64,000 nt of DNA from Bacteroidia bacterium (GCA_021740845.1 JAIOYZ010000005.1:3693-67692), one strand, 5' to 3'; positions 10,094-42,957 are shown, counted from the first letter of the stretch. The notes: generated by a model not told the origin, from the letters alone. Translations and numbers: made by a program.

Positions 10094-10096
10094 ATT

Positions 10097-14548: not shown

Positions 14549-14624
14549 GCGAGAGTAGCTCAGTTGGTAGAGCGCAACCTTGCCAAGGTTGAGGTCGCGG
14601 GTTCGAGCCTCGTCTCTTGCTCCA
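14549..14624 (+). tRNA. tRNA-Gly (GCC)
   Basis: Cloverleaf read by eye. Acceptor GCGAGAG/CTCTTGC, anticodon loop TTGCCAA, T-loop GGTTCGAGC, encoded CCA. Confidence 0.9.
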
Positions 14625-14683
14625 AATAAAAAAGTTATAGGAATCGCCTATAACTTTTTTATTTTAATGTTCTTAAGATAATC

Positions 14684-14771
14684 GCTCGGGTGGTGGAATT
14701 GGTAGACACGCAGGACTTAAAATCCTGTGTCCTTTAAAGACGTGCGGGTTCAAGTCCCGCCCCGAGTACCA
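14684..14771 (+). tRNA. tRNA-Leu (TAA)
   Basis: Anticodon loop CTTAAAA, long variable arm, T-arm GCGGGTTCAAGTCCCGC, encoded CCA. Confidence 0.9.
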
Positions 14772-14774
14772 AAG

Positions 14775-14806
14775 GCCTGCAAACATTGTTTGTGGGCTTT
14801 TTTTTT
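14775..14806 (+). terminator. rho-independent terminator after tRNA-Leu
   Basis: Hairpin gcctgcaaaca..tgtttgtgggc followed by T8. Confidence 0.7.
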
Positions 14807-15021
14807 GCGGCGAAAATTTTTGGTCTTTGGGTGTTGGTCTTTAGTCTTTGGTAGAATTGCTTAGGTGAATGTTTTGGATCAAACCTAAAAGTTGTGGGGA
14901 AGAAATAAAAAGTTGACTTTTGGAGGGAATAAAAAACTTTATGCACGAACTTTTAACCTTCTCCTTTAATAATATTACCAGAATCAATTGAAGAATATTT
15001 TGAAGTAAGCAAAGTCAATAA

Positions 15022-15410
15022 GGAAGGCTAGGTTATCCTATTTATCTAAAGGAGTTAAATAAGATCCCAAGCGAATACGCGTCAAATAAGCTGACATCAA
15101 AAGAATTTTTTGATGAGACAACCATTCAAGATTTTCCTATTCGTGGTTTTAATGTATTGCTACATGTTGCACGTAGACGTTGGATAAATGAAGATACAGG
15201 TCAAGTAGTTTATAGAGATTGGGATCTAGTTGCAAAGGGCACGCGAATCACGAAAGATTTTGCGGCTTTTTTAAAAGAATTCCGCCGATACACAGGCTTA
15301 TAGTCTTCAAACCATCGCATCGTTTTATGGAGTTGATGGAAAGAAATTGCAACTGCAATATCGCAATAAACTTAATCCAATTGATCTGATCAAACTGGAA
15401 TTTCTTTTAA
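15022..15410 (+). pseudogene. frameshifted or truncated ISL3-like transposase N-terminal remnant
   Basis: Open frame without a start codon: ...DFPIRGFNVLLHVARRRWINEDTGQVVYRDWDLVAKGTRITKDFAAFLKE. A TAG stop is followed by continuation in another frame, QTIASFYGVDGKK. This resembles the ISL3 N-terminal HTH region. Family assignment is tentative. Confidence 0.35.
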
Positions 15411-15436
15411 AACAAAAAAGCCGCTATATGCGGCTT
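15408..15436 (-). terminator. hairpin terminator downstream of tRNA-Lys
   Basis: Hairpin aagccgctatatgcggctt with a U-run on the minus strand. Confidence 0.6.
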
Positions 15437-15448
15437 CTTTGTTTTTTG

Positions 15449-15521
15449 TGATCCCGCTGGGATTCGAACCCAGGACCCCTACATTAAAAGTGTAATGCTC
15501 TACCAGCTGAGCTACGGAATC
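15449..15521 (-). tRNA. tRNA-Lys (TTT)
   Basis: Reverse complement gives GATTCCGTAGCTCAGCTGGTAGAGCA...CTTTTAA...GGTTCGAATCC...CGGGATCA. Confidence 0.85.
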
Positions 15522-21512: not shown

Positions 21513-22601
21513 ATGAAAGAGAAATCAGTTTCCCAACAAACCGTAGATATTGCTTTAAGGTTATCCTTGCTTTTTGGGTTATTGTATTGGTGCTTTTTAA
21601 TTCTTTCTCCTTTTCTCATGCCTGTTATTTGGGCCTTAATTATTGCAGTAGCGGCAAATCCTTTACAAATATTTTTAGAAACTAAATTTAGGTTCAAACC
21701 GAGTTTGGCTGCTACCCTAATTGTAGTTTCTTTGCTTTCTATTATTTTGGTTCCTGCCATTTTATTTTTCTCCTCAGCTACACAAGTTATTATTCAATGG
21801 AATAAGCAATTTACTGCTGGCACTTTTACCATGCCAGAAGTGCCTGCCTTTATTGAAAAATGGCCTCTTATTGGTGATAAGCTTCATGAATTTCTTGATA
21901 ATTTTAATAGCAATGTGGAAGCCTTGCTTATTAAATATCAATCACAAATTATTGATATAGCTCAAAGAATTCTTAAAACAATTTTAGGTACTGGTTTGGG
22001 AGTTTTGGAGGTTATATTATCCATTGTTCTTTCTGGAATTTTCCTAGCAATTGGTGATCGTAAAAAGTTTTCAGGACAATTAATGGATCGTATTATCGGT
22101 TCTGGAGGGCATGGTTATGTTGATTTATCTGTTCAAACCATTCGCAGTGTGGTTAAAGGAGTTTTAGGTGTTGCTGTTATTCAAACTTTATTGGCTGGCA
22201 TAGGTTTTTATTTAGCGGGCATCCCCAATGCTCCAATTTGGACATTAATATGTTTAATTTTAGCTATTGTTCAGGTTGGTCCAGGCTTGGTAATAATTGG
22301 TTGTCTATTTTATTTATTCGATGCCGAATCTACTTTGTTTGCATCTTTGTGGACAGCCTATTTTGTTGGTGTTTTATTGTCGGATAATATTCTACGACCA
22401 TTTTTATTAGGCAAAGGAGCTTCGGTTCCAATGGTTGTAATTTTCTTAGGAGTAATTGGAGGCTTTATGCTTTCTGGTTTTATTGGTTTGTTTATTGGCG
22501 CCATCATCCTTTCTATGGGATATAAAATGTTCCTATTTTGGATGGAAAACGATGGAAAAGTTTTATTTAATTCTGAGGAAACCAATTCCCATTCCGAATA
22601 A
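21513..22601 (+). CDS. AI-2E family transporter (UPF0118)
   Basis: Eight-TM profile. Length is 362 aa. Confidence 0.75.
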   Translation: MKEKSVSQQTVDIALRLSLLFGLLYWCFLILSPFLMPVIWALIIAVAANPLQIFLETKFRFKPSLAATLIVVSLLSIILVPAILFFSSATQVIIQWNKQFTAGTFTMPEVPAFIEKWPLIGDKLHEFLDNFNSNVEALLIKYQSQIIDIAQRILKTILGTGLGVLEVILSIVLSGIFLAIGDRKKFSGQLMDRIIGSGGHGYVDLSVQTIRSVVKGVLGVAVIQTLLAGIGFYLAGIPNAPIWTLICLILAIVQVGPGLVIIGCLFYLFDAESTLFASLWTAYFVGVLLSDNILRPFLLGKGASVPMVVIFLGVIGGFMLSGFIGLFIGAIILSMGYKMFLFWMENDGKVLFNSEETNSHSE

Positions 22602-25600
22602 CTAAAACAAATATCTTGCTTCCATTTTCCCTGTATGTATAACCGGTATTGTACCAGATTTCCGGCCATCGTAACTAATATTAATTTGCAAGTTTTGACC
22701 AAACCTTTGTTGCAAACCAACACTCCACAATTGGTTATTACCTAAGCTCAATCCTTGCAACATATCATAAGCTAAAGGACTATTTGTGCTTCCCGTAAAT
22801 GCAACTTTATACAAACTATATTTAACAGTTAATACCCCAATTTTTGCAAAGGAATATCTCAGCTCCGCGCCCATTTCATTTACCTCACTTTTCTCCCCTC
22901 CTTTTTCTATTTGGTTTACAGATTTTGAATATGTATAATTTAAGCTTATCCTAAATTGTTGTTGCCATTGAAAATTCACTTTCGGCTTAATTTCCTCAAA
23001 TTGATATTGGTAATTATTTTGACTAAAAAACTCCGAATTAAATTGTCTTAGTCCCCAAGCATATGCCCCATTGATAGTCCAATTGGCATTTATATTTACT
23101 CTTCCACCAAGGGCATTTTCCATTCTATTTCTACTTTCAAATCCATTGGTTTGCAAGTTCTTTGTTTCTTGTTTATTCCATGCCCAATCCAAACCCCAAT
23201 ACGGATTATTCCGATTAAAAAACAAGGTATTTCTAATTGTAGAAGCCAGGTTAACTAAATTAGAATCTGGCACCGCAACCTGCAAAAGATTTCTCCAATC
23301 TTGTCCTGTTCCAATCAATACTTTGCGTTCAAAACGTGCCGCCGCTTGGTCGCTAAATCTATATACAAAACCAAGTAATCCCGTTCTCTTGGGCGATTGA
23401 AAAGTATTGATGTTTAAGGTCTGACTAAATTGGGTATTATTCACCCTAATAAGACTCGTTGTAGGCAAATAAACTTTTATATAATTGGCTAAATTCCTAT
23501 CTGCAAAAGAGGCCAATTGAAACTCATTTAATTGTTGCTGCTCATCGCCATTAAAATCTTTCCAAACATAAGCGCCTTGACCAACCTGTACTTCCACATA
23601 TTGGTAATCTCGTCTTAATTCATTGCCAGAACCCAATTGCAAATAAGAGTTAGCAGTAATCAATCGTTTAAAAAAACCATAATCGTATTCTACCCTACTT
23701 AACAAAGTTTTTTCGGGCTTCAATTGCGCAAAATTGGTATCCAAAATTCTAAAATCTCTAAAAGAAATATCTACATTAAGTTTGTTGAAATTCTTTTGCA
23801 AATAACCAATACCAAACTTGGCTTCATTGGCTAAGGTATGTTCCTTAAATTCGTTGAATTGAGGTAAAAAGTCCCTCCTTAAATTGTAATTGGCAAACCA
23901 ACTAAAACGAGTGGTATCGCTACTTTTTATAAAAAAACCAATTTGTTCATAAGCAAAACTACCATTTAATAAACTGTCTTTTGCACTCTTAAAACTGCTC
24001 CTCTCGGCTTTTAAAGTGGTTCCGGTTTGAACCAACCTAAATAAACGAGTATAAGTAAGTTGAAAATTTTGAGACAAATTTGAACCTATTGAAACTTTAG
24101 AAAGATCCTTATCATTTCCATTAATCCACTCAAAACTTCCTAAAAGTCTGTTCTTAGAATCATATAGGTTTGAACCCAATTGATGTCGTAAACCAGAAAA
24201 GCCACCATCACCTCGATTATAATAAGAGAATTGATAATCCACTTGTCCATTCTTTGGCGTTTTATAGGCTAAAATCCAATTTAAGAGATGCTCTTTGTTA
24301 CCAGAATCAGATGCTATTTGATTGTTCAATTGCCTATTCCAAATCCTGTTAAACTCTACATTCCTATACCGTTCTATATACCTAAAATTTTCATCAGTAA
24401 ATTCATAAGACACTTTACTTTCTAATTTGCTGTTTGAACCAAAGGCCTGAAAGGTATTTGTAGAGTTAACCTTCAAAGCATAACCTGCATCGTTGCTTTT
24501 TCCTAAATCACTGTAAAGGTTTTTATCATTTATACTTCTTGCCCCCTCCACATTTAATTGGTGATTCTTATTAAATTTATATTCCGTTCCAAGGTTAAGC
24601 ATTTGTCTCTGGTTAGGAGCAATTAGCTGAATATAGGGTTCAAAATCTCCTTGAGGAATTCCATTGATTGGTTCAACCCAATTAAAAACTCTACCATTGG
24701 TGCTACTTGCTCCTTGAACGTAATTACCTTTTTGAGTTCCAACAAATGAAAACCGAAGTTCATAAAACACAGTGGCAGAATTTGGGTCGGTAGTATGAAA
24801 ATAAACATTAGAATAACCAAGAGTATCTATTTTCCTGTACAGAATTTTCTTTGGGTCGTAAGGTGAAACTGGCACTTCACTGCTCACTTTGGCATTTTGC
24901 AAATCATCTCCAACCTGCGATAATAGTAGTTTATTGCTATCAGTTAAACTTTGTTGGAAAGGCTGGTTTTTATTATCTTGTTCGGTATAGTAATTTAAAT
25001 AAACCTTTCCCTTACCAATGTCCCACTTGGTGTTTAAGGCAAATAAGGTTCTGGCAAAATTTCTATCTGAATACTGAAACTCAATAATAATACGCGAATA
25101 TTGGGTAATTAACCTTTTAGGCATAAACACAATTTCTCCTGAATTATAATCAATGGTATAGTCATTTTGCTCTCCACGTGTTAGCCTTTCACCATCTAAA
25201 TACACGGCTTCCGTTCCAGAAATAATAATGATAAAAACTTCTCCATTTGGGCCAACCAAACGGTAAGGACCTTGATTTCCTTCTAAGCCATTGATAACAT
25301 TTCTTACAAAGCGGCCTCTTGCCAAAGCTGCTTGTGCCCCAACTTCCAAATGTTGTTTGTTCTTTAAATCAAAATTGGTTTGCGCCGAAAGTCCTCTTGA
25401 TTTTTTATAATAATTAAGAAAATAAGAATCTTGAGGTTTGGTCATTAAATAATCACCAACAACCAATTTGTTTTTGTTTTTGCTAAACTGAACAAACACC
25501 TGGTCAAAGTCTTGCAATTCTTGGGTATTACCTTCTGGTTGAATTGGATTATTCTCATCGCTAATGGCTGCCAAAATATCTACATCGTTGTTTATTTTTC

Positions 25601-26084
25601 CAGCCAATTGTAGGTTTAAATTGGCATTAACAATTGCATTCTGACTATTACCAATACTTAATCCCCGCATAATGCTTCCATTGGTTACCAGACCTTCATT
25701 TTTAAGAATTGGATCAAACCCACCTTTTTCATTTTGAATACTAAATGGATTTACTGTTTGGTTAAATTCTGGGAGGATTATTTTGGTATCTTTGTGTTGG
25801 TATTTTTCTTTAAATGGATACCGAATGGGAGTATAAGTAAGAGTAATTAGACTATTTTTAGGAATCTTAATATTGATAAAGGCACCATAAAAATAATTGA
25901 TTCTATAATCAATACCTTCAACATAATTATCTACTAAAACGCTCCCTTTAATAATTACAGAACTATCTAATTGAAAGGAATCTTGTTGTATTAGAATACT
26001 TCTTTTGTAGGTAATATCAGAGGTTTGGGCTTGAACCAAACCCAAATTTAGCAGGAAAAGAAGTAGTATAAATCTCCACCTCAT
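22602..26084 (-). CDS. large outer-membrane beta-barrel-like protein (1160 aa), function unknown
   Basis: Signal peptide MRWRFILLLFLLNLGLVQAQ. Composition rich in Tyr, Asn and aromatics. C-terminal ...EARYLF. The ATG overlaps the TGA of the upstream histidine kinase. Confidence 0.4.
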   Translation of the reverse strand: MRWRFILLLFLLNLGLVQAQTSDITYKRSILIQQDSFQLDSSVIIKGSVLVDNYVEGIDYRINYFYGAFINIKIPKNSLITLTYTPIRYPFKEKYQHKDTKIILPEFNQTVNPFSIQNEKGGFDPILKNEGLVTNGSIMRGLSIGNSQNAIVNANLNLQLAGKINNDVDILAAISDENNPIQPEGNTQELQDFDQVFVQFSKNKNKLVVGDYLMTKPQDSYFLNYYKKSRGLSAQTNFDLKNKQHLEVGAQAALARGRFVRNVINGLEGNQGPYRLVGPNGEVFIIIISGTEAVYLDGERLTRGEQNDYTIDYNSGEIVFMPKRLITQYSRIIIEFQYSDRNFARTLFALNTKWDIGKGKVYLNYYTEQDNKNQPFQQSLTDSNKLLLSQVGDDLQNAKVSSEVPVSPYDPKKILYRKIDTLGYSNVYFHTTDPNSATVFYELRFSFVGTQKGNYVQGASSTNGRVFNWVEPINGIPQGDFEPYIQLIAPNQRQMLNLGTEYKFNKNHQLNVEGARSINDKNLYSDLGKSNDAGYALKVNSTNTFQAFGSNSKLESKVSYEFTDENFRYIERYRNVEFNRIWNRQLNNQIASDSGNKEHLLNWILAYKTPKNGQVDYQFSYYNRGDGGFSGLRHQLGSNLYDSKNRLLGSFEWINGNDKDLSKVSIGSNLSQNFQLTYTRLFRLVQTGTTLKAERSSFKSAKDSLLNGSFAYEQIGFFIKSSDTTRFSWFANYNLRRDFLPQFNEFKEHTLANEAKFGIGYLQKNFNKLNVDISFRDFRILDTNFAQLKPEKTLLSRVEYDYGFFKRLITANSYLQLGSGNELRRDYQYVEVQVGQGAYVWKDFNGDEQQQLNEFQLASFADRNLANYIKVYLPTTSLIRVNNTQFSQTLNINTFQSPKRTGLLGFVYRFSDQAAARFERKVLIGTGQDWRNLLQVAVPDSNLVNLASTIRNTLFFNRNNPYWGLDWAWNKQETKNLQTNGFESRNRMENALGGRVNINANWTINGAYAWGLRQFNSEFFSQNNYQYQFEEIKPKVNFQWQQQFRISLNYTYSKSVNQIEKGGEKSEVNEMGAELRYSFAKIGVLTVKYSLYKVAFTGSTNSPLAYDMLQGLSLGNNQLWSVGLQQRFGQNLQINISYDGRKSGTIPVIHTGKMEARYLF

Positions 26085-29000
26085 TCTGCTTTTTTTAGTG
26101 GTAGTCTTATTTTAAATATTGTTCCAGTACCCCACTTCGTTTCAAACCAAATACTTCCTCCTCCACTTTCTATCATACTTTTTACAATGGGTAAGCCCAA
26201 TCCCATTCCAATTACTTTGGTACTAAAATAAGGCATGAATACCTTTTCTTTTTGTTCCTCCGAAATTCCAGTTCCATTGTCTTGTACCTCAATTTGCATC
26301 CAATCCTCATCCACATTTACCCTAATATTTATGAGGCCTTCGTTATCTTCGGGTATTGCCTGGGTGGCATTTTTAACTAGATTGGTTAAGGTTCTATTTA
26401 AATAACTTGCATCATACCAAAGTAATAACTCTTGTTGGCAGTCTACTTCAATTTTGCCATCAAAGGTTTGGAGTTGAAGATGTACTATTTGATCCAATAA
26501 ATTATAAACATCAATGTTTTCGTAACGAGGCGCTGGCATTTTAGCGAAACTACTAAACTCAGTTGCCAAATCACTTAAGGTATCAATTTGTGTAATAAGT
26601 GTTTTTGTAACTCTAGCAAATGTTTCTGGCAGTTTTGGCGATTGGTCGTTCCATGCTCTTTCCAAATGTTGAACACTTAATTTCATTGGAGTAAGAGGAT
26701 TTTTTATTTCATGTGCAATTTGCCTAGCAATATCTCGCCATGCCCCTTCCCTTTCGCTCTTTGCCAATTTGCTCGCGCTTTCTTCTAATTGGTTCAACAT
26801 TAAATTGTATTCTTTAACCAACTCTCCAATTTCATCTTTACGGTTCCAAAGTATGGGTTCATTTTTCTTTTCAAAAGAGGTATTTGCCATTTGCTTTTGC
26901 AATAACATTAATGGGAAAGAAATATTGCGGGAAACTATCCAAGCCATTATTCCAATTACCAAAAACATCAATGCATATAAATTGATAAACCCAACGATGA
27001 TGGAGGAGATTTCGGTATACAAATCGGTGCTTTGGTAGAAATTTGGCAATTGAACATAACCCAATAAATTTCTATTCTTACCAAATACTGGAACATAAGC
27101 CCCTGTATATTGAAAGGTGGCTATTTGCTCTTGTTGCACATACTGTGATTCGCGTAAATTATTCAGATGGTAGAATGCAGTGGCATTCATTAAAGGAGCT
27201 AAAATCCCATCGTCGTATACTTTTTTGATGGTAGAGGCTATTAGCTCACCTTCTGGGTTAAAGAAGGTAATATCTGTATTGTAAAAATCAGCAATTTGGT
27301 TAATACTTGCCTCTGCATCAATTTGGTTATTGGCAAAATTTACCTCCTGACTTTCATTTTCAATTGCACTAAGAACATTTCTAATCTTTTTTACAAGCTT
27401 TTCATTTTGTTTTTCAAGATTTTGTTGGCTTATAAAATCAATTGTAAAATAGGCGGTTGAACCAAGTGTAACAAAAACAATTAACACAATGCCCAATTGA
27501 ATTCTGGTTCTAATAAGCGAAAGGTCGGTATCTTTTATGATTAAGAATTGATTGGCATGTTTTTGTACCCAAATCCAAATTTTATTTTCTTGCCATTTAA
27601 GTTGTTTGGTCCAACGGTTGTTGAAAATGAAATACAAGAAAATAAAGGCCAATAAAATGAGTGTAAAAAAGGTAAATGAAAGTGAAAACAGTCCAAATGG
27701 TTCGAACCAAGATGGAGCCTCTTTGCTTACAACCACAAACAATTGGTCACTTTCCTTAAATAATAAATGACTATAACCATCTTCCTCAAAAATGGCACTT
27801 TTATCATTAATATTATTCCAGGTAAAGGTGGTTCTATAAGCAAAATCTCCACTCTGACTTAATAACCTCCTATCTCTATAAATGGCATAGGAATAATTAT
27901 AATGCTTGTTGTAATTGGTTCTAAAACCTTCAATCAACAATTCATCAAATCGGTTTTCATCCTGTAAAAGCTTTGGTTGAAGATGAATAAAGAAAACGCC
28001 TAAAATTTCTCCATTTTCTTTTATTACAAACTTTCCCAAATACCCTTTGAGGTAGGCATTGTTTTTTAAGAATTTAAAATTTTGGTTTATGGTGGCCGAA
28101 CCAAGATTTTTATAAATATAATTTACTTGTTGATAGCTAAAAATATTACGAACCTGTTTGTGATTAAAGCTAGAATCAAAATCGTAAATTGAAATATCAT
28201 ATTTACCCAAATATCCCGAAAAATAAAGCTGCCTAAGTCGTTTCACCAGCTGGGATTTTAAACCAATTGGGTTCTTATAGTACGACCTAATAATATTTCC
28301 TTCAGCAATTTTCTTCTCAACATTCAAGAGAAAATATTCTGCATTTACATCGTTTTGAGAAACTCTTTTTGAGGCATATAAAAACCTGCTTTCTTCCTCT
28401 TCTTTTAAACTATAGTAATAAATGGTTAAGGATGCAAAAATGCTCAACAAAACCACTAAAACAAAATACTTTTGAAAGCGGTTCATTTTGTCTTGAACCC
28501 AATGTTTGTATGCAATAAAACTTAAAATAAGAAAGCTACTGGCGAAGGAATAATCAGCTTTGCGTTCAAAAAGAAATAATACGAGATATGGATGCAAAAA
28601 ATAAAATACCAAGCCTACCATGAAAAACTTTTCATAGAAACTTAAATCCCTCCTTTGCAATAATTGATAGAACCTTAAAACCATTTGGTAGCATACCAAT
28701 AAAAGCAGGAAGGCAAGTAACAATCCTAAAAAAGTATAAACATTGATATCGTAAATATTTTTAATATCAAATGAAATCTGAGAATCGAAAACCAAACTTT
28801 TAATGCTATCGAATGCTGCATCAGACAAGACAATTGTTAACCAAGACACAAAGCCCAATTGCAGAAATTGGATGGCTTTATTTTTGGGATAATGTGGTTT
28901 AACATCTTTTATTATTAATAAATACCAAAGAAGGGTTAAAGTAGCCACTAAAAAATCTCCTAAGGAAGGGTTATACAAAGAGCTTGCATAAATATCTGGG

Positions 29001-29797
29001 CTAAATAGTTTTTGGCTATATATAAATAGCGGAGTTTTGGAAGTAAGGAAAAGCCAACGAGCAATTTGAGTTAAAGAAAGAAAAGTGATGCTGGTAAGGT
29101 AAAAGTATTTCCCTATAAGATCTGAAATTACGAGGTGAAACAACCAAGCAGAAACTACCAAATTTACTAGAATTAACAAGCGCAACCACAGAGGTGTTAA
29201 TTTTGGAAATCCAAAAATTTGTATGGAGCAAACGTACTTTCCTTTTCTATCAAAAATATCGTGAAAGTCTTTAATGGGTGAAGGACTAAAAAGGGCTGAA
29301 CCAAGAAAAGACAAATCAGAATTGATATGGTTTTGTATGTATTGATTTTGAAAAAGGTAGTTAGTTTTTAATTGAAAAAAGATGGCAATTTTATACGACC
29401 CTTTCTGTAAAAAGGAAACCAAATAAGCGCCATTATTGGTATTGAGATAAAAAAAGCCATCCTTTAAGGCAGGTAAATATTTAATGGAATTTACCGTATT
29501 GTCTGTCCAAAGTATGAGTGAATCGTTTCTAAATAAATGAACAATAAAACTTTCGTTCTTGGCTTGATCCAAAAAATCTGTCCACTTTCTGGAAGCAACA
29601 GAAGTATCTTTAAGCAATTGGTAAATGAGGTCTTTACTTTCTGCTTCTTTATCAAAAAATACCTGTTGAATCCTCTCGTAATTGTTTTTTTCTTGCTGTG
29701 CAGTATTTTGTAAAATGGTAGCTTCCCAACCAATAAACGAGCTAAGAATAGCCAAACTAACGACTAACCAAATTAGATATTTAAGGGCTCGGTTCAA
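26081..29797 (-). CDS. 7TM-receptor type sensor histidine kinase (no receiver domain)
   Basis: N-terminal sensor domain, block of 7-8 TM helices, second extracytoplasmic domain. HisKA H-box HEIKNPLTPM and HATPase GMGLGLPIVK. Confidence 0.8.
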   Translation of the reverse strand: MNRALKYLIWLVVSLAILSSFIGWEATILQNTAQQEKNNYERIQQVFFDKEAESKDLIYQLLKDTSVASRKWTDFLDQAKNESFIVHLFRNDSLILWTDNTVNSIKYLPALKDGFFYLNTNNGAYLVSFLQKGSYKIAIFFQLKTNYLFQNQYIQNHINSDLSFLGSALFSPSPIKDFHDIFDRKGKYVCSIQIFGFPKLTPLWLRLLILVNLVVSAWLFHLVISDLIGKYFYLTSITFLSLTQIARWLFLTSKTPLFIYSQKLFSPDIYASSLYNPSLGDFLVATLTLLWYLLIIKDVKPHYPKNKAIQFLQLGFVSWLTIVLSDAAFDSIKSLVFDSQISFDIKNIYDINVYTFLGLLLAFLLLLVCYQMVLRFYQLLQRRDLSFYEKFFMVGLVFYFLHPYLVLFLFERKADYSFASSFLILSFIAYKHWVQDKMNRFQKYFVLVVLLSIFASLTIYYYSLKEEEESRFLYASKRVSQNDVNAEYFLLNVEKKIAEGNIIRSYYKNPIGLKSQLVKRLRQLYFSGYLGKYDISIYDFDSSFNHKQVRNIFSYQQVNYIYKNLGSATINQNFKFLKNNAYLKGYLGKFVIKENGEILGVFFIHLQPKLLQDENRFDELLIEGFRTNYNKHYNYSYAIYRDRRLLSQSGDFAYRTTFTWNNINDKSAIFEEDGYSHLLFKESDQLFVVVSKEAPSWFEPFGLFSLSFTFFTLILLAFIFLYFIFNNRWTKQLKWQENKIWIWVQKHANQFLIIKDTDLSLIRTRIQLGIVLIVFVTLGSTAYFTIDFISQQNLEKQNEKLVKKIRNVLSAIENESQEVNFANNQIDAEASINQIADFYNTDITFFNPEGELIASTIKKVYDDGILAPLMNATAFYHLNNLRESQYVQQEQIATFQYTGAYVPVFGKNRNLLGYVQLPNFYQSTDLYTEISSIIVGFINLYALMFLVIGIMAWIVSRNISFPLMLLQKQMANTSFEKKNEPILWNRKDEIGELVKEYNLMLNQLEESASKLAKSEREGAWRDIARQIAHEIKNPLTPMKLSVQHLERAWNDQSPKLPETFARVTKTLITQIDTLSDLATEFSSFAKMPAPRYENIDVYNLLDQIVHLQLQTFDGKIEVDCQQELLLWYDASYLNRTLTNLVKNATQAIPEDNEGLINIRVNVDEDWMQIEVQDNGTGISEEQKEKVFMPYFSTKVIGMGLGLPIVKSMIESGGGSIWFETKWGTGTIFKIRLPLKKAE

Positions 29798-29835
29798 ACC
29801 AAGTTTCTACTAAGTTTTATTAAAAAAATTATTAA

Positions 29836-30807
29836 TTAATAATATCCTTCACCTTTTTCTAAATACTCCAAAACATAATCTTTTATCCCATCTTCTAAGG
29901 ATGTAAATGGTTTTGTATATCCAATGGCTATTAACTTATCCATTTTTGCCTCAGTAAAATACTGATAGGTATCTCTAATATCTTCTGGAATAGGAATGTA
30001 TTGAATTTTTGGTGCTAAACTTAAAGCATTAAACAAGCCATATGCCAAAGAATTCCAAGTTCTTGCCTGGCCAGAACCAAGGTTATACAAACCACTTGAT
30101 TTGCGGTGATGCATTAAAAACAGGCAAACATCGCAGAGGTCTTTTACATAAATAAAATCGCGCTTTTGCTCCCCATATTTATAATCTGCTCTATGTGATT
30201 GAAACAATTTTACTTCACCCGTTTCCTTTATTTGATGATAGGCATGTAAAACCACACTGGCCATTCTTCCTTTGTGGTATTCATTAGGGCCATACACGTT
30301 AAAAAACTTCAATCCTGCCCAAAAATAAGGTTGTTCGGGTTGATCCAAAACCCATTTATCAAAGTCGTTTTTTGAGCGGCCATAGGGATTCATAGGCTTT
30401 AAATTTTGCAAATCAGTTTGTTGGTCGGAATAACCAAGCTCGCCCTCTCCATATGTTGCAGCGCTAGATGCATAAACCAATGGAATACCTTCTTTAACGC
30501 AAATATTAAATAATGATTTACTAAAATCTAGATTCAATTCTTTGAAAATTTGCTCGTCTTTTTCAGTGGTATCGGTTCTAGCTCCAATATGAAATACAAA
30601 TTGAACCTCATGGGCATTGGTTTCCATCCATTGAAAAAAGGCTTTACGCTCAACTTTCTGATTGAATTTCTTACCCAATAAATTTGTTTGCCTTCCATCA
30701 ATATGGCCAAAATCATCCACTAAAACCAAATCTGTATAAGAGGCATTATTTAGGTGTGCAACCAAACAACTTCCAATAAAACCTTCTGCTCCCGTAATAA
30801 CTATCAT
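29836..30807 (-). CDS. hldD: ADP-L-glycero-D-manno-heptose 6-epimerase-like NAD-dependent epimerase
   Basis: GAEGFIGS Rossmann motif, YASSAATYG, FNVYGPNEYHKGRMASV, YIPIP. Colinear with HldD. Confidence 0.7.
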   Translation of the reverse strand: MIVITGAEGFIGSCLVAHLNNASYTDLVLVDDFGHIDGRQTNLLGKKFNQKVERKAFFQWMETNAHEVQFVFHIGARTDTTEKDEQIFKELNLDFSKSLFNICVKEGIPLVYASSAATYGEGELGYSDQQTDLQNLKPMNPYGRSKNDFDKWVLDQPEQPYFWAGLKFFNVYGPNEYHKGRMASVVLHAYHQIKETGEVKLFQSHRADYKYGEQKRDFIYVKDLCDVCLFLMHHRKSSGLYNLGSGQARTWNSLAYGLFNALSLAPKIQYIPIPEDIRDTYQYFTEAKMDKLIAIGYTKPFTSLEDGIKDYVLEYLEKGEGYY

Positions 30808-30954
30808 AAATTAGTCAATAATCAACGAAAGTACAAAGTTTTTGCGGCCTTCCCAAGAAGAGAAAAGGTCCTTTGGTTCAAACCGAAATTTTAGAAGAAA
30901 AATTAAAATATAAGGAAACGGGATTTGTTAGAATAAACCAATCCAATTAGGAAT

Positions 30955-31380
30955 TTATTCCCCGAAATATTCTACGAAATTATTTTCTGTTTCAATTAAT
31001 TTAATGGAATGTAATTTTCCATTTTCTATCTGAGGAGCCATAATATCCCAAACTGCAACTACAATATTCTCAATGGATGGCATAAATCCTTTTAAGAAAT
31101 CTACATCTTCATTAAGGTTTTTATGGTCCAATTTTTCTGTTACAGATTCTTTGATAATTTTCTTAAGCTTCTTTAAATCCATCACCATTCCAGTTTCTGG
31201 ATTGGCAATACCTTTTATGGTAACAAATAATTCAAAATTGTGACCATGGTAGTATTTATTGGAGCATTTCCCAAAAAAATCCTCGTTTTCTTGTTCGGTC
31301 CAATTTGGATTATACAATTTATGAGCAGCGTTAAAACGCTCTCTTCTGGTAATATAAACTATTTTCTGTCTGTCTGCCAT
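30955..31380 (-). CDS. queD: 6-carboxy-tetrahydropterin synthase / PTPS family
   Basis: CxxxHGH-type motif YHGHNFEL. Length is 141 aa. Confidence 0.65.
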   Translation of the reverse strand: MADRQKIVYITRRERFNAAHKLYNPNWTEQENEDFFGKCSNKYYHGHNFELFVTIKGIANPETGMVMDLKKLKKIIKESVTEKLDHKNLNEDVDFLKGFMPSIENIVVAVWDIMAPQIENGKLHSIKLIETENNFVEYFGE

Positions 31381-31455
31381 CTAGGTAAAAAAATCGCCCG
31401 CAAATATAATTAAGTTTCGTTTTTTTTTAGAATTAGTTTGCCTTGAACCAAAATC

Positions 31456-32349
31456 CTATTGCCAAATGTCTGGATGTTCTAATAAATTGGGCGAATAACA
31501 GATTTCCTCCAAGGCAGGCAAACGGTCGATAATATGAAGGGATTTCAAATCATTTAAAATGGAAACCATCTGAATTTCATCAATTTCTTCAGCATAATTG
31601 TATTCCAATTCGCTAAACCATTGTTTGGCATCGGCCAATTTCAATTGGTAACGCCATGCTACCATTTGTGTGGCTTCTTCTTCTTTAAACTTCAAAGAGT
31701 AACAAGATTTGTTTACCACTTCAATAACCTTTTTCAATAAATCAGGATCGCTTTCTATCAATTGGTTGTGAGCAACTACAGCAAAACATGGCCATGGAGT
31801 TGTGCATTCTCCTAACAACCTAAATTCACCACTATCAACCAAAGGCTTAGTCATGTATTTTTCCCACATAAAAACTTGGGCTTCATCTGCTGCCAATGCC
31901 TTTCTTGCTCCTTCCATATTTCCAACCAAAACAAAGTCGGTTTCTGGGTTTATGGTTTGATCCAAATTTCTTGCATTTACAAACGACATCAAATGCGAAC
32001 CAGACTTATATCGGCTTATGGCATATTTCTTTCCTTCGATTTGGCTCAAAGAATGAATATCATTTTTGGTACTTGTATAAATTCCCCACATCAAAGGTGA
32101 ATTCACGTAAAACTGAACAATTTTTGAAGGATTTCCCACCATGATATCTGCTATAATACCTTCTGTTAAGGTAATGGCAATATCAAGTTCGTGGTTGCGA
32201 AGAGCATTGCACATAGCACCTGTGCCGCCAGGAACATCTTGCCATTCAATCTCTATTCCTTCTTCACTAAAATGGCCATTTTCGTTGGCTAGGTGCCAAG
32301 CCAAATTAAAATGCTCGGGCACGCCACCAACACGTACCACTTTTTTCAT
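31456..32349 (-). CDS. NMT1/THI5-like (SsuA-like) substrate-binding fold protein
   Basis: Periplasmic-binding-protein-like pattern. Start taken at the internal MKKVVRVGG. Low specificity. Confidence 0.4.
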   Translation of the reverse strand: MKKVVRVGGVPEHFNLAWHLANENGHFSEEGIEIEWQDVPGGTGAMCNALRNHELDIAITLTEGIIADIMVGNPSKIVQFYVNSPLMWGIYTSTKNDIHSLSQIEGKKYAISRYKSGSHLMSFVNARNLDQTINPETDFVLVGNMEGARKALAADEAQVFMWEKYMTKPLVDSGEFRLLGECTTPWPCFAVVAHNQLIESDPDLLKKVIEVVNKSCYSLKFKEEEATQMVAWRYQLKLADAKQWFSELEYNYAEEIDEIQMVSILNDLKSLHIIDRLPALEEICYSPNLLEHPDIWQ

Positions 32350-37142: not shown

Positions 37143-37143
37143 G

Positions 37144-37218
37144 TGGAGGCACATGGATTCGAACCAAGGACCCTCTGCTTGTAAGGCAGATGCTCTGAAC
37201 CAGCTGAGCTATGCCTCC
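37144..37218 (-). tRNA. tRNA-Val (TAC)
   Basis: Reverse complement gives GGAGGCATAGCTCAGCTGGTTCAGAGCATCTGCCTTACAAGCAGAG...GGTTCGAATCC...TGCCTCCA. There is one U-U mismatch in the T-stem. Confidence 0.85.
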
Positions 37219-37335: not shown

Positions 37336-38157
37336 TCAATACTCATCTAAGTCAGAATCTAGTTCCAACAAACCATTATTTTTATTCTCAGAATCTATCA
37401 AAACTTCAATAGCATTGTCCTTTAAATTTGAATCTTCATTGATTGATAAATTATTTGGAGTTGAAATTTTAATAAGCATACTTTTAAACATTCGCTTTTC
37501 AAACCAATCATCAAAACTATATTCTGTTTGTTGGTCATTTGAAGTATATATTATTTTATTGAAAAGTAAATGTCTTAAATCTTTTCCATCTTTCGAATAA
37601 TATTGAAGATAGCACAAATCATAAAAAACCGCACTCTCACCATTAATAAACTTTTCATATTGTGGCGCAATTGAAAGTATCCTGGCGAAATATTGATTAA
37701 GTCGTTTATCAAACATCCAGGCTTCAACAATTTTATATTTATAAATTCTAACTTTTGGATCAAAACTAAGAATAGAAAATTTTGCTACATTAATAGAATC
37801 ATTTCGACTTGATTCATAAATTGTATCACAACCAATCAATACAAAATCTTCTAGTGAAAAAATCTTACTACGATTTTCATCTACGTAAGGAAGTAAATTA
37901 TAATCGAGTATTTGCTGATAAATAAAATAAGAAAAATTGTTAAGAGGATAATTTAAAACGCTATTCTGTTTTTCTCTCGTATCAAGCATTCTTTCCACCA
38001 ACCTTAAACATATTACGTCTCTGCTATTTAATTCAGGCCATGGCTTTAAAACACGTAATTTTGGTCTATTATTATCCAATTCAAACTTGCTTGAGTCAAT
38101 GGTTTGACCCAAAAGCATAAATGGCAACAATAAAACAAGGGCAAAAATCGATTTCAT
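37336..38157 (-). CDS. GldN paralog (GldO-like), AT-rich
   Basis: Colinear with GldN: PW..L...DV...R...LDTREKQN, QYE.....DLRHLLF, DDWFE.R.F. Ends in the same DEY tail. Confidence 0.6.
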   Translation of the reverse strand: MKSIFALVLLLPFMLLGQTIDSSKFELDNNRPKLRVLKPWPELNSRDVICLRLVERMLDTREKQNSVLNYPLNNFSYFIYQQILDYNLLPYVDENRSKIFSLEDFVLIGCDTIYESSRNDSINVAKFSILSFDPKVRIYKYKIVEAWMFDKRLNQYFARILSIAPQYEKFINGESAVFYDLCYLQYYSKDGKDLRHLLFNKIIYTSNDQQTEYSFDDWFEKRMFKSMLIKISTPNNLSINEDSNLKDNAIEVLIDSENKNNGLLELDSDLDEY

Positions 38158-38269
38158 ACAAACTTGTTAAGAATATAAAATCAACGAAATCTAGAAGAAA
38201 AGAGTACAAAAATAATGCATAAAAAAAGGCCACCAGTAAACTGATGGCCTTTCAAATACCTCTTTAGGA

Positions 38270-39106
38270 TTAATATTCCCAAAGATCGTGTTCTTTTTCG
38301 AACAATTCATTTTTAATACGTTCACCTTCTAATAAAGTTGCAACGCCATTATCTCTAAACTCAGCATAATCCTTGATATACATATCTTGCTGATTAGCTT
38401 CTTTAGTAATATAACTTGTAAATAATCTTTGCTCAAACCAGTCGTCATAAGTTAGTCTTGCAGCATCATTTTGCCTGTTAAAAACTTCATAGTTTACAAG
38501 GAAATGACGTAAGTCTAAACCATCTTTTGAATGGTATTTAAACACACATAAATCTTGTTCACCTAAATCTACACCACCTAAACGTACATTGTATTGAGGT
38601 GAAATAGATACTATTCTAACAAACATCTGTGAATGTTTTTTATCAAAAATCCAATCTTCAACTACACGAAACTTAAAAATTCTCAGTTCCGGTATCATTG
38701 CATTAACAACGGTATCAGTTACTGTAAATGTAGGATCATTAGGATCAATAGGTACATCAAAGTATTCTGTATCGGTTCCCAATGATAGAAACTTTTCAAT
38801 AGACATTTGAGTGTTTAATGAGTCACTTTCATAAGGAACTAATTTACCATCACGCACAGCATTGTACAAAATCACACTTAATGGGTTTTTAGGCCATGTC
38901 ATGGGTTGATTTGCTTTTTCACGCGTATCAATAATTCGCACAACACGTTTTGCGTACATTACATCTGCCTCACGTAAGTATGGCCATGCAATAACTTTAC
39001 GCTCGGTAACTGCCTGACGGTTATAAATGAAATCATCATATACACCTTGGGCAAAATTGCTATACGAAAGCAACAGAAAAACTACAATACCTATTAATTT
39101 TTTCAT
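38270..39106 (-). CDS. gldN: gliding motility / T9SS protein GldN (PorN)
   Basis: Last gene of the gldKLMN block. Conserved DTREKANQ and DWFEQRLF segments. Confidence 0.8.
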   Translation of the reverse strand: MKKLIGIVVFLLLSYSNFAQGVYDDFIYNRQAVTERKVIAWPYLREADVMYAKRVVRIIDTREKANQPMTWPKNPLSVILYNAVRDGKLVPYESDSLNTQMSIEKFLSLGTDTEYFDVPIDPNDPTFTVTDTVVNAMIPELRIFKFRVVEDWIFDKKHSQMFVRIVSISPQYNVRLGGVDLGEQDLCVFKYHSKDGLDLRHFLVNYEVFNRQNDAARLTYDDWFEQRLFTSYITKEANQQDMYIKDYAEFRDNGVATLLEGERIKNELFEKEHDLWEY

Positions 39107-39124
39107 TTCTGATTTGATTCTTTT

Positions 39125-40657: not shown

Positions 40658-40690
40658 TTCTTTTTATATCTATTAAAGTAGTTTGTAAAA

Positions 40691-41485
40691 TTAGTTACTA
40701 CGAGTATTCATGGCAGCAAGCATGTTACCATAAACACTGTTTAGTGAAGATAAATTCTTGTTCAATTTATCCATTTCACCTTTAAAATGCTCAGCATTTG
40801 TAGTTGATTCATTTAAAGTATTAACTACTTTAGATAATCCACCAACAAATTCATTAATAGATTTCAAGTGATTATTTGATTCTGAAATTTCTAATTCATA
40901 GATAGAATTCAATGAATTCAAATTCTTAGTCATTTTTTCAATTTGTGCACCGTATTCACGTGAACCTTCTGAAGCATTTACTAAACCTTCCATAGCACTT
41001 ACAGCTTTGGTATAAGTAGTATTAATACCTGTTAAAGAATCAGCAGCCGCTTGAACATTTTTAGTGTAAGCATCAGTTGCTACTGCAGCTGTTGATAGAT
41101 CTTTCATGCTAGTAACGTTTTCGCTTAATGTACGCATTCCGTTTCCTAAGCTACTAATCAAATCTGGACCAATTTTAGCCTCTTCCATCATTTTGTCCAA
41201 TTGTTGAGTTAAGGTACCCTTACTTACAGCTTTCTTTTCTTTTGGTTCAAGACCAGCTAATTCAGGATAAACTAATGACCAATCTGGTTCTTGATGAGGT
41301 GGTTCAAAAGCAGAAATAAAGAAAATAGCAGCCTCAGTTAACAAGCCCACCATCAACATCGCATCAGCACCTGGCCAGTGAAGAATTTTGAAAAGGGCAC
41401 CAATAATTACAACTGCAGCACCAATTCCATAAGCCTTTGCCATAAAAGACTTAAAGCCTTTACTTTCTAAAAAACTGTTTTTCAT
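40691..41485 (-). CDS. gldL: gliding motility / T9SS protein GldL (PorL)
   Basis: Two N-terminal TMs and a coiled-coil C-terminus. Operon position is consistent with GldL. Confidence 0.8.
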   Translation of the reverse strand: MKNSFLESKGFKSFMAKAYGIGAAVVIIGALFKILHWPGADAMLMVGLLTEAAIFFISAFEPPHQEPDWSLVYPELAGLEPKEKKAVSKGTLTQQLDKMMEEAKIGPDLISSLGNGMRTLSENVTSMKDLSTAAVATDAYTKNVQAAADSLTGINTTYTKAVSAMEGLVNASEGSREYGAQIEKMTKNLNSLNSIYELEISESNNHLKSINEFVGGLSKVVNTLNESTTNAEHFKGEMDKLNKNLSSLNSVYGNMLAAMNTRSN

Positions 41486-41505
41486 TCGATTAAATTTTAA
41501 AGTTT

Positions 41506-41548
41506 AGAATTTGTTTAGTTTGTTTGTTTGTTTGTTTTGTTTGTTTAT
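41506..41548. repeat. (GTTT)n / (CAAA)n microsatellite in the gldK-gldL intergenic spacer
   Basis: Sequence tttgtttagtttgtttgtttgtttgttttgtttgttt. Confidence 0.9.
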
Positions 41549-41554
41549 TCGATC

Positions 41555-42847: not shown

Positions 42848-42957
42848 TTTTATGTTAAAAATTAATGACTGTAATGTGGCAAAAATATTAATTCCTGTGA
42901 ATTATACAAGTATCTATGATATTATTTTGTTAATAAAACGTAAAGTATTGAACATTA

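Follow-up and report, generated by a model that had tools for sequence, protein, structure and literature searches.

Gene organization of the locus

The window, i.e., the whole 64-kb stretch of DNA that was analyzed, carries on its minus strand a trio of genes that encode, in order of transcription, an ADP-glyceromanno-heptose 6-epimerase (HldD), a sensor histidine kinase and a protein predicted to form a giant outer-membrane beta-barrel. The kinase gene (26081-29797) encodes 1238 aa from a TTG start, and the barrel gene (22602-26084) encodes 1160 aa. ORF calls and translations agree with the placement of these two genes in an earlier, sequence-only reading of this DNA, as does the junction sequence, gcagaATGAggtgg, in which the kinase TGA overlaps the barrel ATG by 4 nt (ATGA, 26081..26084). 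Because the barrel start lies inside the kinase stop codon, both genes would share one mRNA and the amounts of their products are probably linked. By itself the overlap is unremarkable, as in the window 8 of the 38 same-strand neighbor pairs lie no more than 5 nt apart.

The first gene of the trio, hldD (29836..30807, minus strand), was identified by its match to TIGR02197 (363 bits against a cut-off of 274.6). A probable Bacteroidota sigma-A-type promoter lies just upstream of it (30808..30850, minus strand), recognized by the match of its -7 box, TACTTTCG, to the consensus. The window and most of 35 related loci carry TAnnTTTG-like boxes (TACTTTCG, TATTTTCG, TATTTTTG) about 15-30 nt upstream of the hldD ATG, and no sigma-54 -24/-12 element was found upstream of hldD in the window or the related loci. 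The operon is probably transcribed in the window from this housekeeping-type promoter. A type IX secretion core cluster lies 8 kb away in the window.

The sensor kinase

Judged by its sequence, the kinase is a class I sensor histidine kinase (HisKA/HATPase_c) with intact catalytic motifs. The transmitter (26093..27034, minus strand) comprises TM12 and a HAMP domain (aa 922-1005), followed by HisKA (aa 1020-1087, 34.7 bits against a Pfam cut-off of 26.9) and HATPase_c (aa 1129-1235, 77.3 bits against 26.4). A motif scan located the H box (HEIKNPL at 1029, with His1029 as phospho-acceptor), the N box (NLVKNA at 1139), the G1 box (DNGTGI at 1173), the F box (FMPYFSTK at 1187) and the G2 box (GMGLGL at 1197). 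The Pfam scan returned no Response_reg match at E values up to 0.1, which upholds the earlier statement that the kinase lacks a receiver domain and leads us to reject a hybrid, receiver-containing kinase.

At the sequence level it is the transmitter alone that resembles the NtrB/NtrY/AtoS class. The best NCBIfam matches of the kinase were LIC_11548 (score 172 against a cut-off of 750), AtoS (143 against 646), ZraS (101 against 479) and NR(II) (78 against 240), each below its equivalog cut-off; with all scores so far under the threshold, identification of the kinase as a named equivalog (NtrY, AtoS, ZraS or LIC_11548) was rejected. Homologues of the kinase are labelled NtrY by JGI.

The sensor part of the kinase is unusually large, at about 950 aa. 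An AlphaFold2 model (pLDDT 82.4) shows 12 transmembrane helices arranged as 1+8+1+1+1 and three periplasmic domains. The first of these domains (aa 32-196; 29210..29704, minus strand) is PDC/Cache-like and follows TM1 (aa 3-30). It leads into an eight-helix transmembrane bundle (aa 203-480; 28358..29191, minus strand), defined by the model together with a hydropathy scan, for which structural and Pfam comparison gave no specific match. The second domain (aa 484-693; 27719..28348, minus strand) has an alpha/beta PDC-like fold, as judged from its modelled secondary structure and the confidence there. The third (aa 790-920; 27038..27430, minus strand) is single-Cache-like, lies between TM11 and TM12, and has a weak Pfam match to sCache_3_3 (aa 831-914, E = 0.015) in addition to the model; PF17202 is present in several homologues of the kinase. 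The kinase is therefore predicted by the model to have three extracytoplasmic sensor domains of the PDC/Cache type. A PAS domain was not detected in the cytoplasmic part.

The sequence-only reading had described the kinase as a 7TM-receptor protein. This description is not retained, as there is no 7TMR-DISM match in Pfam and the model shows 12 membrane helices with an eight-helix core; 7TMR-DISM was rejected on the lack of PF07695/DISMED in the kinase and among the domains precomputed for 120 homologues. Full-length homologues of the kinase, 1165-1300 aa in length, occur across Bacteroidota and retain the full architecture with or without an adjacent barrel gene.

The outer-membrane barrel protein

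The N-terminus of the barrel protein, MRWRFILLLFLLNLGLVQA followed by Q, is signal-peptide-like as read from the translation. The putative signal peptide spans aa 1-19 (26028..26084, minus strand), with cleavage between VQA and Q, no lipobox Cys, and a helix at residues 2-16 in the model. A small beta-sandwich domain follows (aa 26-85; 25830..26009, minus strand), which is modelled with a pLDDT of about 80-86, contains a DYxIDY motif kept in homologues and is presumably periplasmic. The beta-barrel region (aa 158-1158; 22611..25613, minus strand) is made up of long strands, roughly 38-40 as counted by hand on the predicted model, and the protein ends in Phe (...ARYLF). Overall confidence in the model is no more than moderate (pLDDT 67.6, pTM 0.50). 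The most conserved stretch of the family, defined by the invariant columns of a homologue alignment, covers aa 130-345 (25050..25697, minus strand) and carries the motifs ISDxNNPIQPEGNTQxLQDFD, EGNQGPYRLxGxNGE and a second DYxIDYNxGEIxF. It interleaves with the first barrel strands, its inserts being modelled with low confidence (low pLDDT at 89-160 and 256-342). The signal peptide, the aromatic beta-signal and the antiparallel strands of the model together predict an outer-membrane beta-barrel. The sequence-only reading had likewise noted a signal peptide, a Tyr/Asn-rich composition (Asn 10.2%, Tyr 5.5%) and an aromatic C-terminus, all of which are borne out.

The same reading had been able to assign no family to this protein, and our searches gave the same outcome: neither Pfam nor NCBIfam nor PDB sequence searches returned a match, the PDB sequence profile search being empty at E values up to 10. 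Homologues number more than 3164, all of them named "hypothetical", and the family falls into 4273 clusters at 50% identity, with lengths of 1130-1210 aa in almost every case. Foldseek gave generic barrel matches over 200-390 of the 1160 residues at 4-13% identity, with TM-scores of at most 0.24. The closest folds, weakly matched, are those of LptD and SprA.

LptD resembles the barrel protein in being a large barrel and in giving its top Foldseek E-values, and the LPS-core gene hldD lies in the same operon. LptD has 26 strands, against the approximately 38-40 counted by hand here. It was rejected as the family of this protein because PF03968, PF04453 and PF19838 are absent in the query and 22 homologues at E values up to 1, OstA and LptD domains thus going undetected, and because TM-scores reach only 0.23 at 6-11% identity. 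A SusC-like or other TonB-dependent transporter was rejected for lack of Plug, TonB_dep_Rec or STN domains. SprA/Sov, the 36-strand type IX translocon, is likewise a Bacteroidota outer-membrane barrel of very large size made of a single chain, and gives the highest query-normalized Foldseek TM-scores (0.21-0.24), but the resolved SprA chain exceeds 2100 residues, so that the 1160-aa barrel is half its size, and PDB SprA chains have no sequence match to it even at E = 10. SprA/Sov was rejected on the lack of any match to a Pfam or NCBIfam SprA model or a PDB SprA chain and on length (1160 aa versus about 2400). The UniRef name of the Algoriphagus ortholog, "Cell surface protein SprA", appears to be an unsupported automatic label. 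Solan et al. (2021; PMC8346858) predict that outer-membrane barrels of 38 and 40 strands form a superfamily (their families 002 and 003), and the 1160-aa barrel is similar to these in its hand-counted number of strands (about 38-40).

Conservation of the gene pair

Related loci with a barrel homologue number 81, made up of 80 genome loci and that of Algoriphagus (L081). The kinase gene lies immediately upstream of the barrel gene in 46 of these 81. In 43 of 44 readable junctions the stop/start spacing falls between -4 and +6 nt (-4 in 30, -1 in 7, 0 in 5, +6 in 1), the exception being L067 at +13, and the tight spacing is conserved over barrel identities of 43-66%. The pair is also present in L067, in L091 (an additional metagenome locus) and in the far outgroup Algoriphagus, where the barrel is 33% and the kinase about 28% identical and the spacing is +42. 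In a tree of the barrel, adjacency spans a whole large clade with the exception of one monophyletic loss. By sequence comparison, retention of the junction across such diverged loci is beyond chance expectation, and the sequence-only reading's point that would have spoken against a link, a pair not conserved together, does not hold for these loci.

Adjacency is not obligatory, and other lineages lack it. About 28 related loci with sufficient upstream sequence carry a barrel gene without the kinase alongside, and the kinase occurs without an adjacent barrel in L082-L084, L086 and L092. Kinase-family members lacking a barrel alongside are found in a Bacteroidales MAG, Ginsengibacter and other MAGs. 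In L092, hldD and the kinase are retained and followed by HSP20 where the barrel would stand.

In 36 related loci, every one of them kinase-bearing, a co-oriented hldD immediately precedes the kinase, as it also does in L091 and L092. This link is limited to the clade of the window and is missing in Algoriphagus. Housekeeping genes that stay nearby are LeuRS, a queD-like gene and hldD. The barrel of L064 has a DUF4783 gene beside it, with same-sized ORFs at this position in L062 and L069, and a DUF4783 gene likewise adjoins the kinase in L085, L086 and L093. In L059 the kinase is separated from the barrel by LeuRS and by gmhA, a heptose gene, and LeuRS also stands between the two in L061; DUF4783, LeuRS and gmhA are neighbors shared by lineages in which kinase and barrel are apart. 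No conserved substrate or export partner gene was found next to the barrel in the related loci.

A candidate response regulator

No REC or sigma-54 gene was found within 8 kb of the pair in the window and 83 related loci, which agrees with the earlier description of the kinase as an orphan with no adjacent response regulator. A REC-domain phmmer search against every ORF of 70 aa or more in the window identified the product of 61297-62664 (plus strand, 455 aa) as the sole REC protein in the 64 kb; among the same ORFs there is a single kinase core. This orphan protein has Response_reg (110 bits), Sigma54_activat (237 bits) and HTH_8 (35 bits) matches in Pfam, i.e., a REC, AAA+ and HTH_8 organization that by sequence identifies it as a sigma-54 enhancer-binding response regulator. 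Its best NCBIfam match is NtrX, at 435 bits, below the 600-bit cut-off. In the window 31.5 kb separate the regulator gene from that of the kinase, and an NtrY-style gene arrangement, with a regulator gene adjoining the kinase, was rejected on this ground.

A regulator gene of this type adjoins the kinase only in distant members of the kinase family, L085 and L087, whose REC+sigma-54 regulators are 59-60% identical to the 61297 regulator. The 61297 regulator is 80-94% identical where the kinase is 37-76% identical; as the regulator evolves so slowly, 60% identity lies within the range to be expected of an ortholog. Against this, sigma-54 activators as a class are well conserved. The suggestion that the sigma-54 regulator is the output partner of the kinase gains indirect support from these neighbors and from the NtrB/NtrY/AtoS-type H box. 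Given orthology at about 60% identity and the class of the kinase, the 61297 regulator is the probable cognate partner. No sigma-54 promoter was recognized in the window, a scan giving 25 matches against 27.8 expected by chance.

Interpretation of the locus

Since the pair is tightly coupled and conserved in many Bacteroidota, the kinase and the barrel probably act together in the cell envelope of these bacteria. We propose that the locus is a conserved Bacteroidota envelope operon, hldD-sensor kinase-giant outer-membrane barrel, in which kinase and barrel would form one functional module signalling to the 61297 regulator, and we put the probability of this reading at about 0.5. It builds on what the sequences show directly, namely how the genes are arranged, which domains they encode, that the junction is conserved and that the kinase family is linked to regulators of the 61297 type. 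The kinase would join an NtrY/AtoS-class transmitter to a large sensor that combines three PDC/Cache domains in the periplasm with 12 membrane helices, and would be produced from one mRNA with the barrel, probably in linked amounts. From these features we infer the phosphorylation pairing, the contact between kinase and barrel, the signal and the regulon: the kinase would most likely phosphorylate the unlinked, NtrX-like regulator, which could then activate a sigma-54 regulon encoded elsewhere. The barrel, with its roughly 38-40 hand-counted strands, N-terminal periplasmic domain and highly conserved insert, may have its state, or something passing through it, read by the periplasmic and membrane domains of the kinase and reported to transcription, which would amount to physical signalling across the envelope. 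A fuller scheme, which we regard as rather improbable as a whole, would make the barrel family a core outer-membrane component across Bacteroidota and the outer-membrane half of a trans-envelope sensor, its N-terminal domain or insert contacting the kinase so that the unlinked sigma-54 activator relays outer-membrane or LPS status to a regulon for stress or the envelope.

The arrangement might instead be inherited, an old housekeeping neighborhood (LeuRS, DUF4783, kinase, barrel, heptose genes) having become compacted while kinase and barrel act independently, the Cache domains sensing small ligands and the barrel serving as a general porin or transporter. We consider this possible, if not favored: many lineages have either gene without the other alongside, the genes retained nearby are of the housekeeping kind, short or overlapping junctions are common in the window (the 8 of 38 pairs noted above), and the architecture of the kinase is unchanged regardless of barrel adjacency. 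However, neutral synteny of unrelated genes seldom survives such divergence in bacteria, and here all but one of the readable junctions stay within -4 to +6 nt at barrel identities down to 43% and the pair recurs in Algoriphagus at 33%.

A regulatory link with no sensing link is, in our view, unlikely. On this account the barrel would export or build LPS, another surface glycan or protein in a broadly LptD- or SprA-like manner, the kinase and sigma-54 regulator would tune envelope or stress genes, and the operon would group heptose supply for the LPS core (hldD) with an exporter and a regulator. The position of hldD at the head of the operon in 36 related loci, gmhA between kinase and barrel in L059, the weak Foldseek proximity to LptD and SprA, HSP20 after the kinase in L092 and the type IX secretion cluster nearby are in keeping with it, as is the enrichment of chaperones and proteases in predicted sigma-54 regulons of Bacteroidota in one analysis (PMC12316311). 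Against it, the barrel has no LptD, OstA or SprA sequence match and TM-scores no higher than 0.24, the hldD association does not extend to Algoriphagus, and the barrel has no conserved substrate or export partner beside it. It is hardly credible that the 1160-aa protein is a member of some well-known family, such as LptD or the SusC-like TonB-dependent transporters, and lies next to the kinase by coincidence. The sequence-only reading had named this outcome as the one that would overturn it, and no family model matches: Plug, TonB_dep_Rec, LptD and OstA models find nothing in the query or 22 homologues even at E values up to 1, the PDB profile search is empty, the structural matches are generic and partial, and the pair is conserved.

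Bacteroidota envelopes are built and monitored unlike those of E. coli, and their sensing of outer-membrane damage is poorly understood. The locus offers a concrete three-part candidate: a giant barrel family, a 12-TM, three-Cache kinase and a plausible sigma-54 output regulator. The barrel family is very widespread yet unnamed, with uniform length across its clusters and no Pfam model in the release searched, and the kinase, joined to it at the level of translation, is equally uncharacterized. If the hand count of 38-40 strands is true, the barrel would be larger than the largest solved single-chain barrel. If kinase and barrel do form a trans-envelope sensor, a barrel exceeding the 36 strands of SprA would be part of a Bacteroidota counterpart to Rcs/Cpx-type envelope surveillance built from unrelated parts, and if synteny is their only link, a useful annotation of two large "hypothetical" protein families remains.

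Comparison with known signalling systems

Like NtrY/NtrX, AtoS/AtoC and ZraS/ZraR, the system proposed here combines a HisKA and HATPase_c transmitter with an HEIKNPL H box and a candidate partner of the REC, sigma-54 AAA+ and HTH_8 type whose best match is NtrX. Unlike these systems, the kinase has a sensor of about 950 aa with 12 TM helices, three PDC/Cache domains and no detected PAS domain, and its gene is coupled to that of an outer-membrane protein, with the regulator 31.5 kb away.

PilS/PilR also pairs a polytopic NtrB-class sensor kinase with a sigma-54-dependent regulator. PilS spans the membrane several times and detects a partner embedded in the membrane, passing the signal to a sigma-54 regulator, and by analogy the transmembrane bundle of the present kinase may itself be a sensing surface. 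PilS, with about 6 TM helices, is not known to carry large periplasmic domains; the sensor part of the kinase described here has no sequence evidence of relatedness to it, and there are no pilin genes at this locus.

TonB-dependent transducers (FecA-FecR-FecI, and SusC-like proteins with anti-sigma factors in Bacteroidota) likewise place a barrel with an extra N-terminal periplasmic domain beside an inner-membrane signalling gene. The barrel described here differs in having no Plug, TonB-dependent receptor or STN domain, and its inner-membrane partner is a histidine kinase rather than an anti-sigma factor. These transducers could, by analogy, serve as a working model for communication between kinase and barrel.

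The histidine kinase

The kinase gene (26081-29797, minus strand) begins at a TTG codon and encodes a protein of 1238 residues. Its HisKA (residues 1020-1087) and HATPase_c (residues 1129-1235) domains both exceed their Pfam cut-offs, the H, N, G1, F and G2 boxes are all intact, and Pfam detects no receiver domain in the polypeptide, in agreement with the sequence-only reading. That reading had also found no response regulator beside the gene, and a phmmer search of all ORFs of 70 aa or more in the window with receiver-domain and kinase-core queries bears this out, returning this one kinase and a single receiver protein at 61297-62664. As that is the sole receiver protein of the window, the kinase is an orphan within these 64 kb, intact and with a very large envelope-facing sensor. 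The transmitter, whose H-box reads HEIKNPL, resembles the NtrB class. Its top NCBIfam matches are LIC_11548, AtoS, ZraS and NR(II), all far under their equivalog cut-offs, and close homologues carry the JGI label "NtrY".

The sensor (residues 1-1000) was modelled with AlphaFold2 from an alignment of 57 homologues (pLDDT 82.4, pTM 0.72). In this confident model, an N-terminal TM1 is followed by a periplasmic alpha/beta domain (residues 32-196), a run of eight TM helices (203-480), another domain in the periplasm (484-693) and a pair of TM helices flanking a short loop in the cytoplasm. Beyond these come the third periplasmic domain (about residues 790-920), with a weak sCache_3_3 match, and finally TM12 and a HAMP domain. 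The protein is thereby predicted to be a 12-TM, triple-Cache sensor ahead of a complete canonical kinase. The earlier designation of a "7TM receptor" kinase must be abandoned, since the modelled sensor has 12 TM helices; the 7TMR-DISM models of Pfam also gave no match to the protein. Full-length relatives of 1165-1300 aa are found across Bacteroidota, in hosts that include Algoriphagus, Ginsengibacter, Cyclobacteriaceae and Bacteroidales MAGs.

The predicted outer-membrane barrel protein

The downstream gene (22602-26084, minus strand) encodes a predicted giant outer-membrane barrel protein of 1160 aa, with MRWRFILLLFLLNLGLVQA/Q at its N terminus and ...ARYLF at its C terminus. Its Asn content is high (10.2%) and Tyr accounts for 5.5%, confirming the Tyr/Asn-rich composition and aromatic C terminus described from the sequence alone, and every generic criterion marks it as an outer-membrane protein. 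NCBI lists the identical sequence, from a Bacteroidia MAG, as a hypothetical protein, and each of its more than 3164 homologues is named "hypothetical". An HMM of the family, scanned against 1.84 billion cluster representatives, retrieved 4273 clusters at an E value of 0.001 or better; among the best 150 of these, nearly all members are 1130-1210 aa in length.

The protein had been described as belonging to no assignable family, and this still holds: it matched no family in Pfam or NCBIfam, Pfam/NCBIfam searches of 22 homologues and three distant members yielded no Pfam family, and a profile search of PDB sequences with the family returned nothing even at E = 10. One homologue, P0088, bears a precomputed PF27067 hit that the PF27067 model in the Pfam copy used here did not reproduce; part of the barrel protein may already have a family in a newer release of Pfam. 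The Algoriphagus ortholog is called "Cell surface protein SprA" in UniRef, a name that was rejected because no model run backs it. A 1196-aa protein without Pfam matches, encoded downstream in the related locus L085, was ruled out as a barrel homologue by tblastn.

The AlphaFold2 model of the barrel protein is of moderate confidence overall (pLDDT 67.6) and reaches 80-95 across most of residues 490-1158. It places a small beta domain near the N terminus (residues 26-85), followed by long antiparallel strands from residue 158 to 1158, roughly 38-40 when counted by hand on the model, with low-confidence inserts at residues 256-342 and 372-483. The first insert falls inside the most conserved stretch of the family (residues 130-345), which includes ISDxNNPIQPEGNTQxLQDFD and EGNQGPYRL.

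Junction and transcription of the pair

The sequence-only reading had reported an ATGA stop/start overlap between the two genes, and the junction sequence (...gca gaA TGA ggt gg...) confirms it: the ATG of the giant predicted barrel overlaps the kinase TGA by four bases, its start codon thus being embedded in the kinase stop codon. By itself this overlap is nothing unusual in the window, since 8 of the 38 same-strand gene pairs have spacings of at most 5 nt; the kinase/barrel pair is, however, the only one with a -4 overlap.

Directly upstream of the kinase lies hldD (29836-30807), which encodes ADP-glyceromanno-heptose 6-epimerase (HldD; 363 bits against a cut-off of 274.6 bits). In 36 related loci, each with the kinase, hldD is found at this same place. 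Comparison of 36 hldD upstream regions, that of the window and those of 35 related loci, revealed a TAnnTTTG-like -7 box (TACTTTCG, TATTTTTG) 15-30 nt before the hldD start in the window and most related loci, and no sigma-54 element in any of the 36. A generic promoter/terminator scan of 22000-31600 showed no excess over shuffled sequence and no terminator-like site between hldD, the kinase and the barrel gene. We infer that hldD, kinase and barrel would form one transcript from a housekeeping-type promoter. The association with a heptose gene hints at LPS or surface-glycan biology, but the hldD link is confined to the clade of the window and is absent in Algoriphagus.

At its other end the barrel gene meets a convergent AI-2E family transporter gene (21513-22601, plus strand), whose last base directly precedes the barrel stop codon (22602-22604). 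With the two gene ends abutting, no intergenic space is left to accommodate a terminator. About 8 kb from the kinase is a type IX secretion/gliding core cluster (37336-43959, minus strand), comprising PorP/SprF (42958-43959), GldK (41555-42847), GldL (40691-41485), GldM (39125-40657), GldN (38270-39106) and a weak second GldN-like paralogue (37336-38157; 54.9 bits, below the 85.9-bit cut-off), all on the minus strand. Rfam, run over the whole window, detected four tRNA genes (Gly-GCC, Leu-TAA, Lys-TTT and Val-TAC, at 14549-15521 and 37143-37218) and no other RNA family at gathering score.

Conservation of the gene pair

Relatives of the barrel were sought in one genome per GTDB species, which gave at least 524 loci, and the best 80 were kept. 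Adjacency was counted over 81 barrel-carrying loci, these 80 and an Algoriphagus locus. The kinase lies directly upstream of the barrel in the same orientation in 46 of the 81, and the junction could be read in 44: the spacing is -4 (ATGA) in 30, -1 in seven, 0 in five, and +6 and +13 in one each. Barrel identity among the loci with a readable junction ranges from 39% to 66%. An independent metagenome locus repeats both the hldD-kinase-barrel order and the ATGA overlap. In Algoriphagus confluentis (Cytophagales), a 1233-aa kinase of about 28% identity lies 42 nt ahead of a 1152-aa barrel that shares 33% identity with that of the window over 1066 residues. The kinase/barrel junction has been kept over deep divergence. 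In a neighbour-joining tree of the barrels, adjacency extends throughout the large clade of the window except for one monophyletic group that has lost it, and it reappears in one further locus (L067) and the Algoriphagus outgroup, with several other outgroups lacking it.

Several MAG records of the gene pair are titled Bifidobacteriaceae, Bifidobacterium, Vulcanococcus limneticus or Chitinophaga pinensis (L016, L020, L027, L053, L055 and others), and one regulator homologue is labelled Candidatus Methylacidiphilales. These odd titles probably reflect mislabelled or mis-binned assemblies.

The barrel occurs without the kinase alongside in about 28 loci, and kinase-family members occur without the barrel alongside in a Bacteroidales MAG, Ginsengibacter and other MAGs. 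In locus L092, hldD, an SMR gene and the kinase are retained, and HSP20 (9837-10286) takes the place of the barrel directly after the kinase. A DUF4783 gene, of which we found no homologue within the window, flanks the barrel in L064 (7393-7788) and the kinase in L085 (6026-6457), L086 (5963-6361) and L093 (5535-5993); in L062 and L069, an ORF at the corresponding position beside the barrel matches this gene in size, the domain scan having covered L064 only. LeuRS abuts the neighbourhood of the pair in the window; in L059 and L061 it is located between the kinase and barrel genes, and in L093 it is close to the kinase. The order in L059 is kinase, PPIase, LeuRS, GmhA, rhomboid, SpoU methylase, barrel. 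GmhA (sedoheptulose-7-phosphate isomerase; L059, 5742-6305) scores above its cut-off and is, after hldD, the second ADP-heptose pathway gene tied to this neighbourhood; L061 has an equivalent ORF, the domain scan having covered L059 only. These shared neighbours fit an old common neighbourhood that was rearranged several times.

A sigma-54 regulator as candidate partner

The known partners of NtrB-type kinases are sigma-54 activators. The receiver protein at 61297-62664 is of this type, with REC, sigma-54 AAA+ and HTH_8 domains and NtrX as its top, below-cut-off NCBIfam match, and the kinase family is tied to this regulator type, which is present but unlinked in the window. The gene at 61297-62664 has housekeeping genes around it, lepA and folD among them, and across 83 loci no REC + sigma-54 regulator was found within 8 kb of the pair. 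P0218 (L085) and P0214 (L087), two distant members of the kinase family, each lie beside a 382-aa REC + sigma-54 regulator (L085, 10540-11688; L087, 10555-11703). These regulators lack the C-terminal HTH_8 DNA-binding domain, an architecture resembling that of Chlamydia CtcC and Campylobacter/Helicobacter FlgR, and are 59-60% identical to the 455-aa regulator of the window over its first 382 residues.

The 61297 regulator evolves slowly: identity is at least 79% throughout its 120 best matches, and in one MAG the regulator is 94% identical against 76% for the kinase and 63% for the barrel. Given this slow evolution, 60% regulator identity at about 30% kinase identity fits orthologs. In the same MAG the regulator lies about 32 kb from the kinase, as in the window, which shows only that both genomes are collinear. 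Taken together, the class of the kinase, the adjacency in L085 and L087 and the 59-60% regulator identity indirectly point to the 61297 regulator as the partner of the kinase. A scan of the window for TGGCAC-N5-TTGCW identified no sigma-54 promoter: chance alone would give 27.8 matches, and the 25 obtained all carry at least two mismatches. In one published analysis, sigma-54 regulons in Bacteroidota are predicted to be enriched in chaperones and proteases (PMC12316311), which would fit an envelope-stress output.

Proposed mechanism and alternatives

In the mechanism we propose, the kinase and barrel proteins would be produced in coupled amounts, the kinase would sense the state of the barrel, or of something the barrel conducts, and it would then phosphorylate the 61297 regulator. 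The main rival to this proposal is inherited synteny, in which kinase and barrel have stayed together with no function in common, a reading kept viable by the many lineages that have the two genes apart. A second rival takes the barrel to be an exporter or biogenesis device, with the kinase merely regulating envelope genes.

Comparison with known systems

The kinase works like those of the NtrY/AtoS/ZraS class, yet it fails every equivalog cut-off, and we found no description of its sensor architecture. The barrel protein could have proved to be LptD or a SusC-like transporter; tests for LptD, SusC/TonB-dependent transporters and SprA were all negative. It may belong to the superfamily of 38- and 40-strand barrels predicted by Solan et al. 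2021 (PMC8346858). The literature searched, which covered the pair, Bacteroidota NtrY-like kinases, giant barrels and Bacteroidota sigma-54 activators, contained no characterisation of either the kinase or the barrel family. Within the incomplete coverage of that literature, there was also no account of a giant outer-membrane barrel whose gene is translationally coupled to that of a histidine kinase. The pair would join two-component signalling to an uncharacterised outer-membrane protein, through a conserved link between two families that are both large and unnamed.
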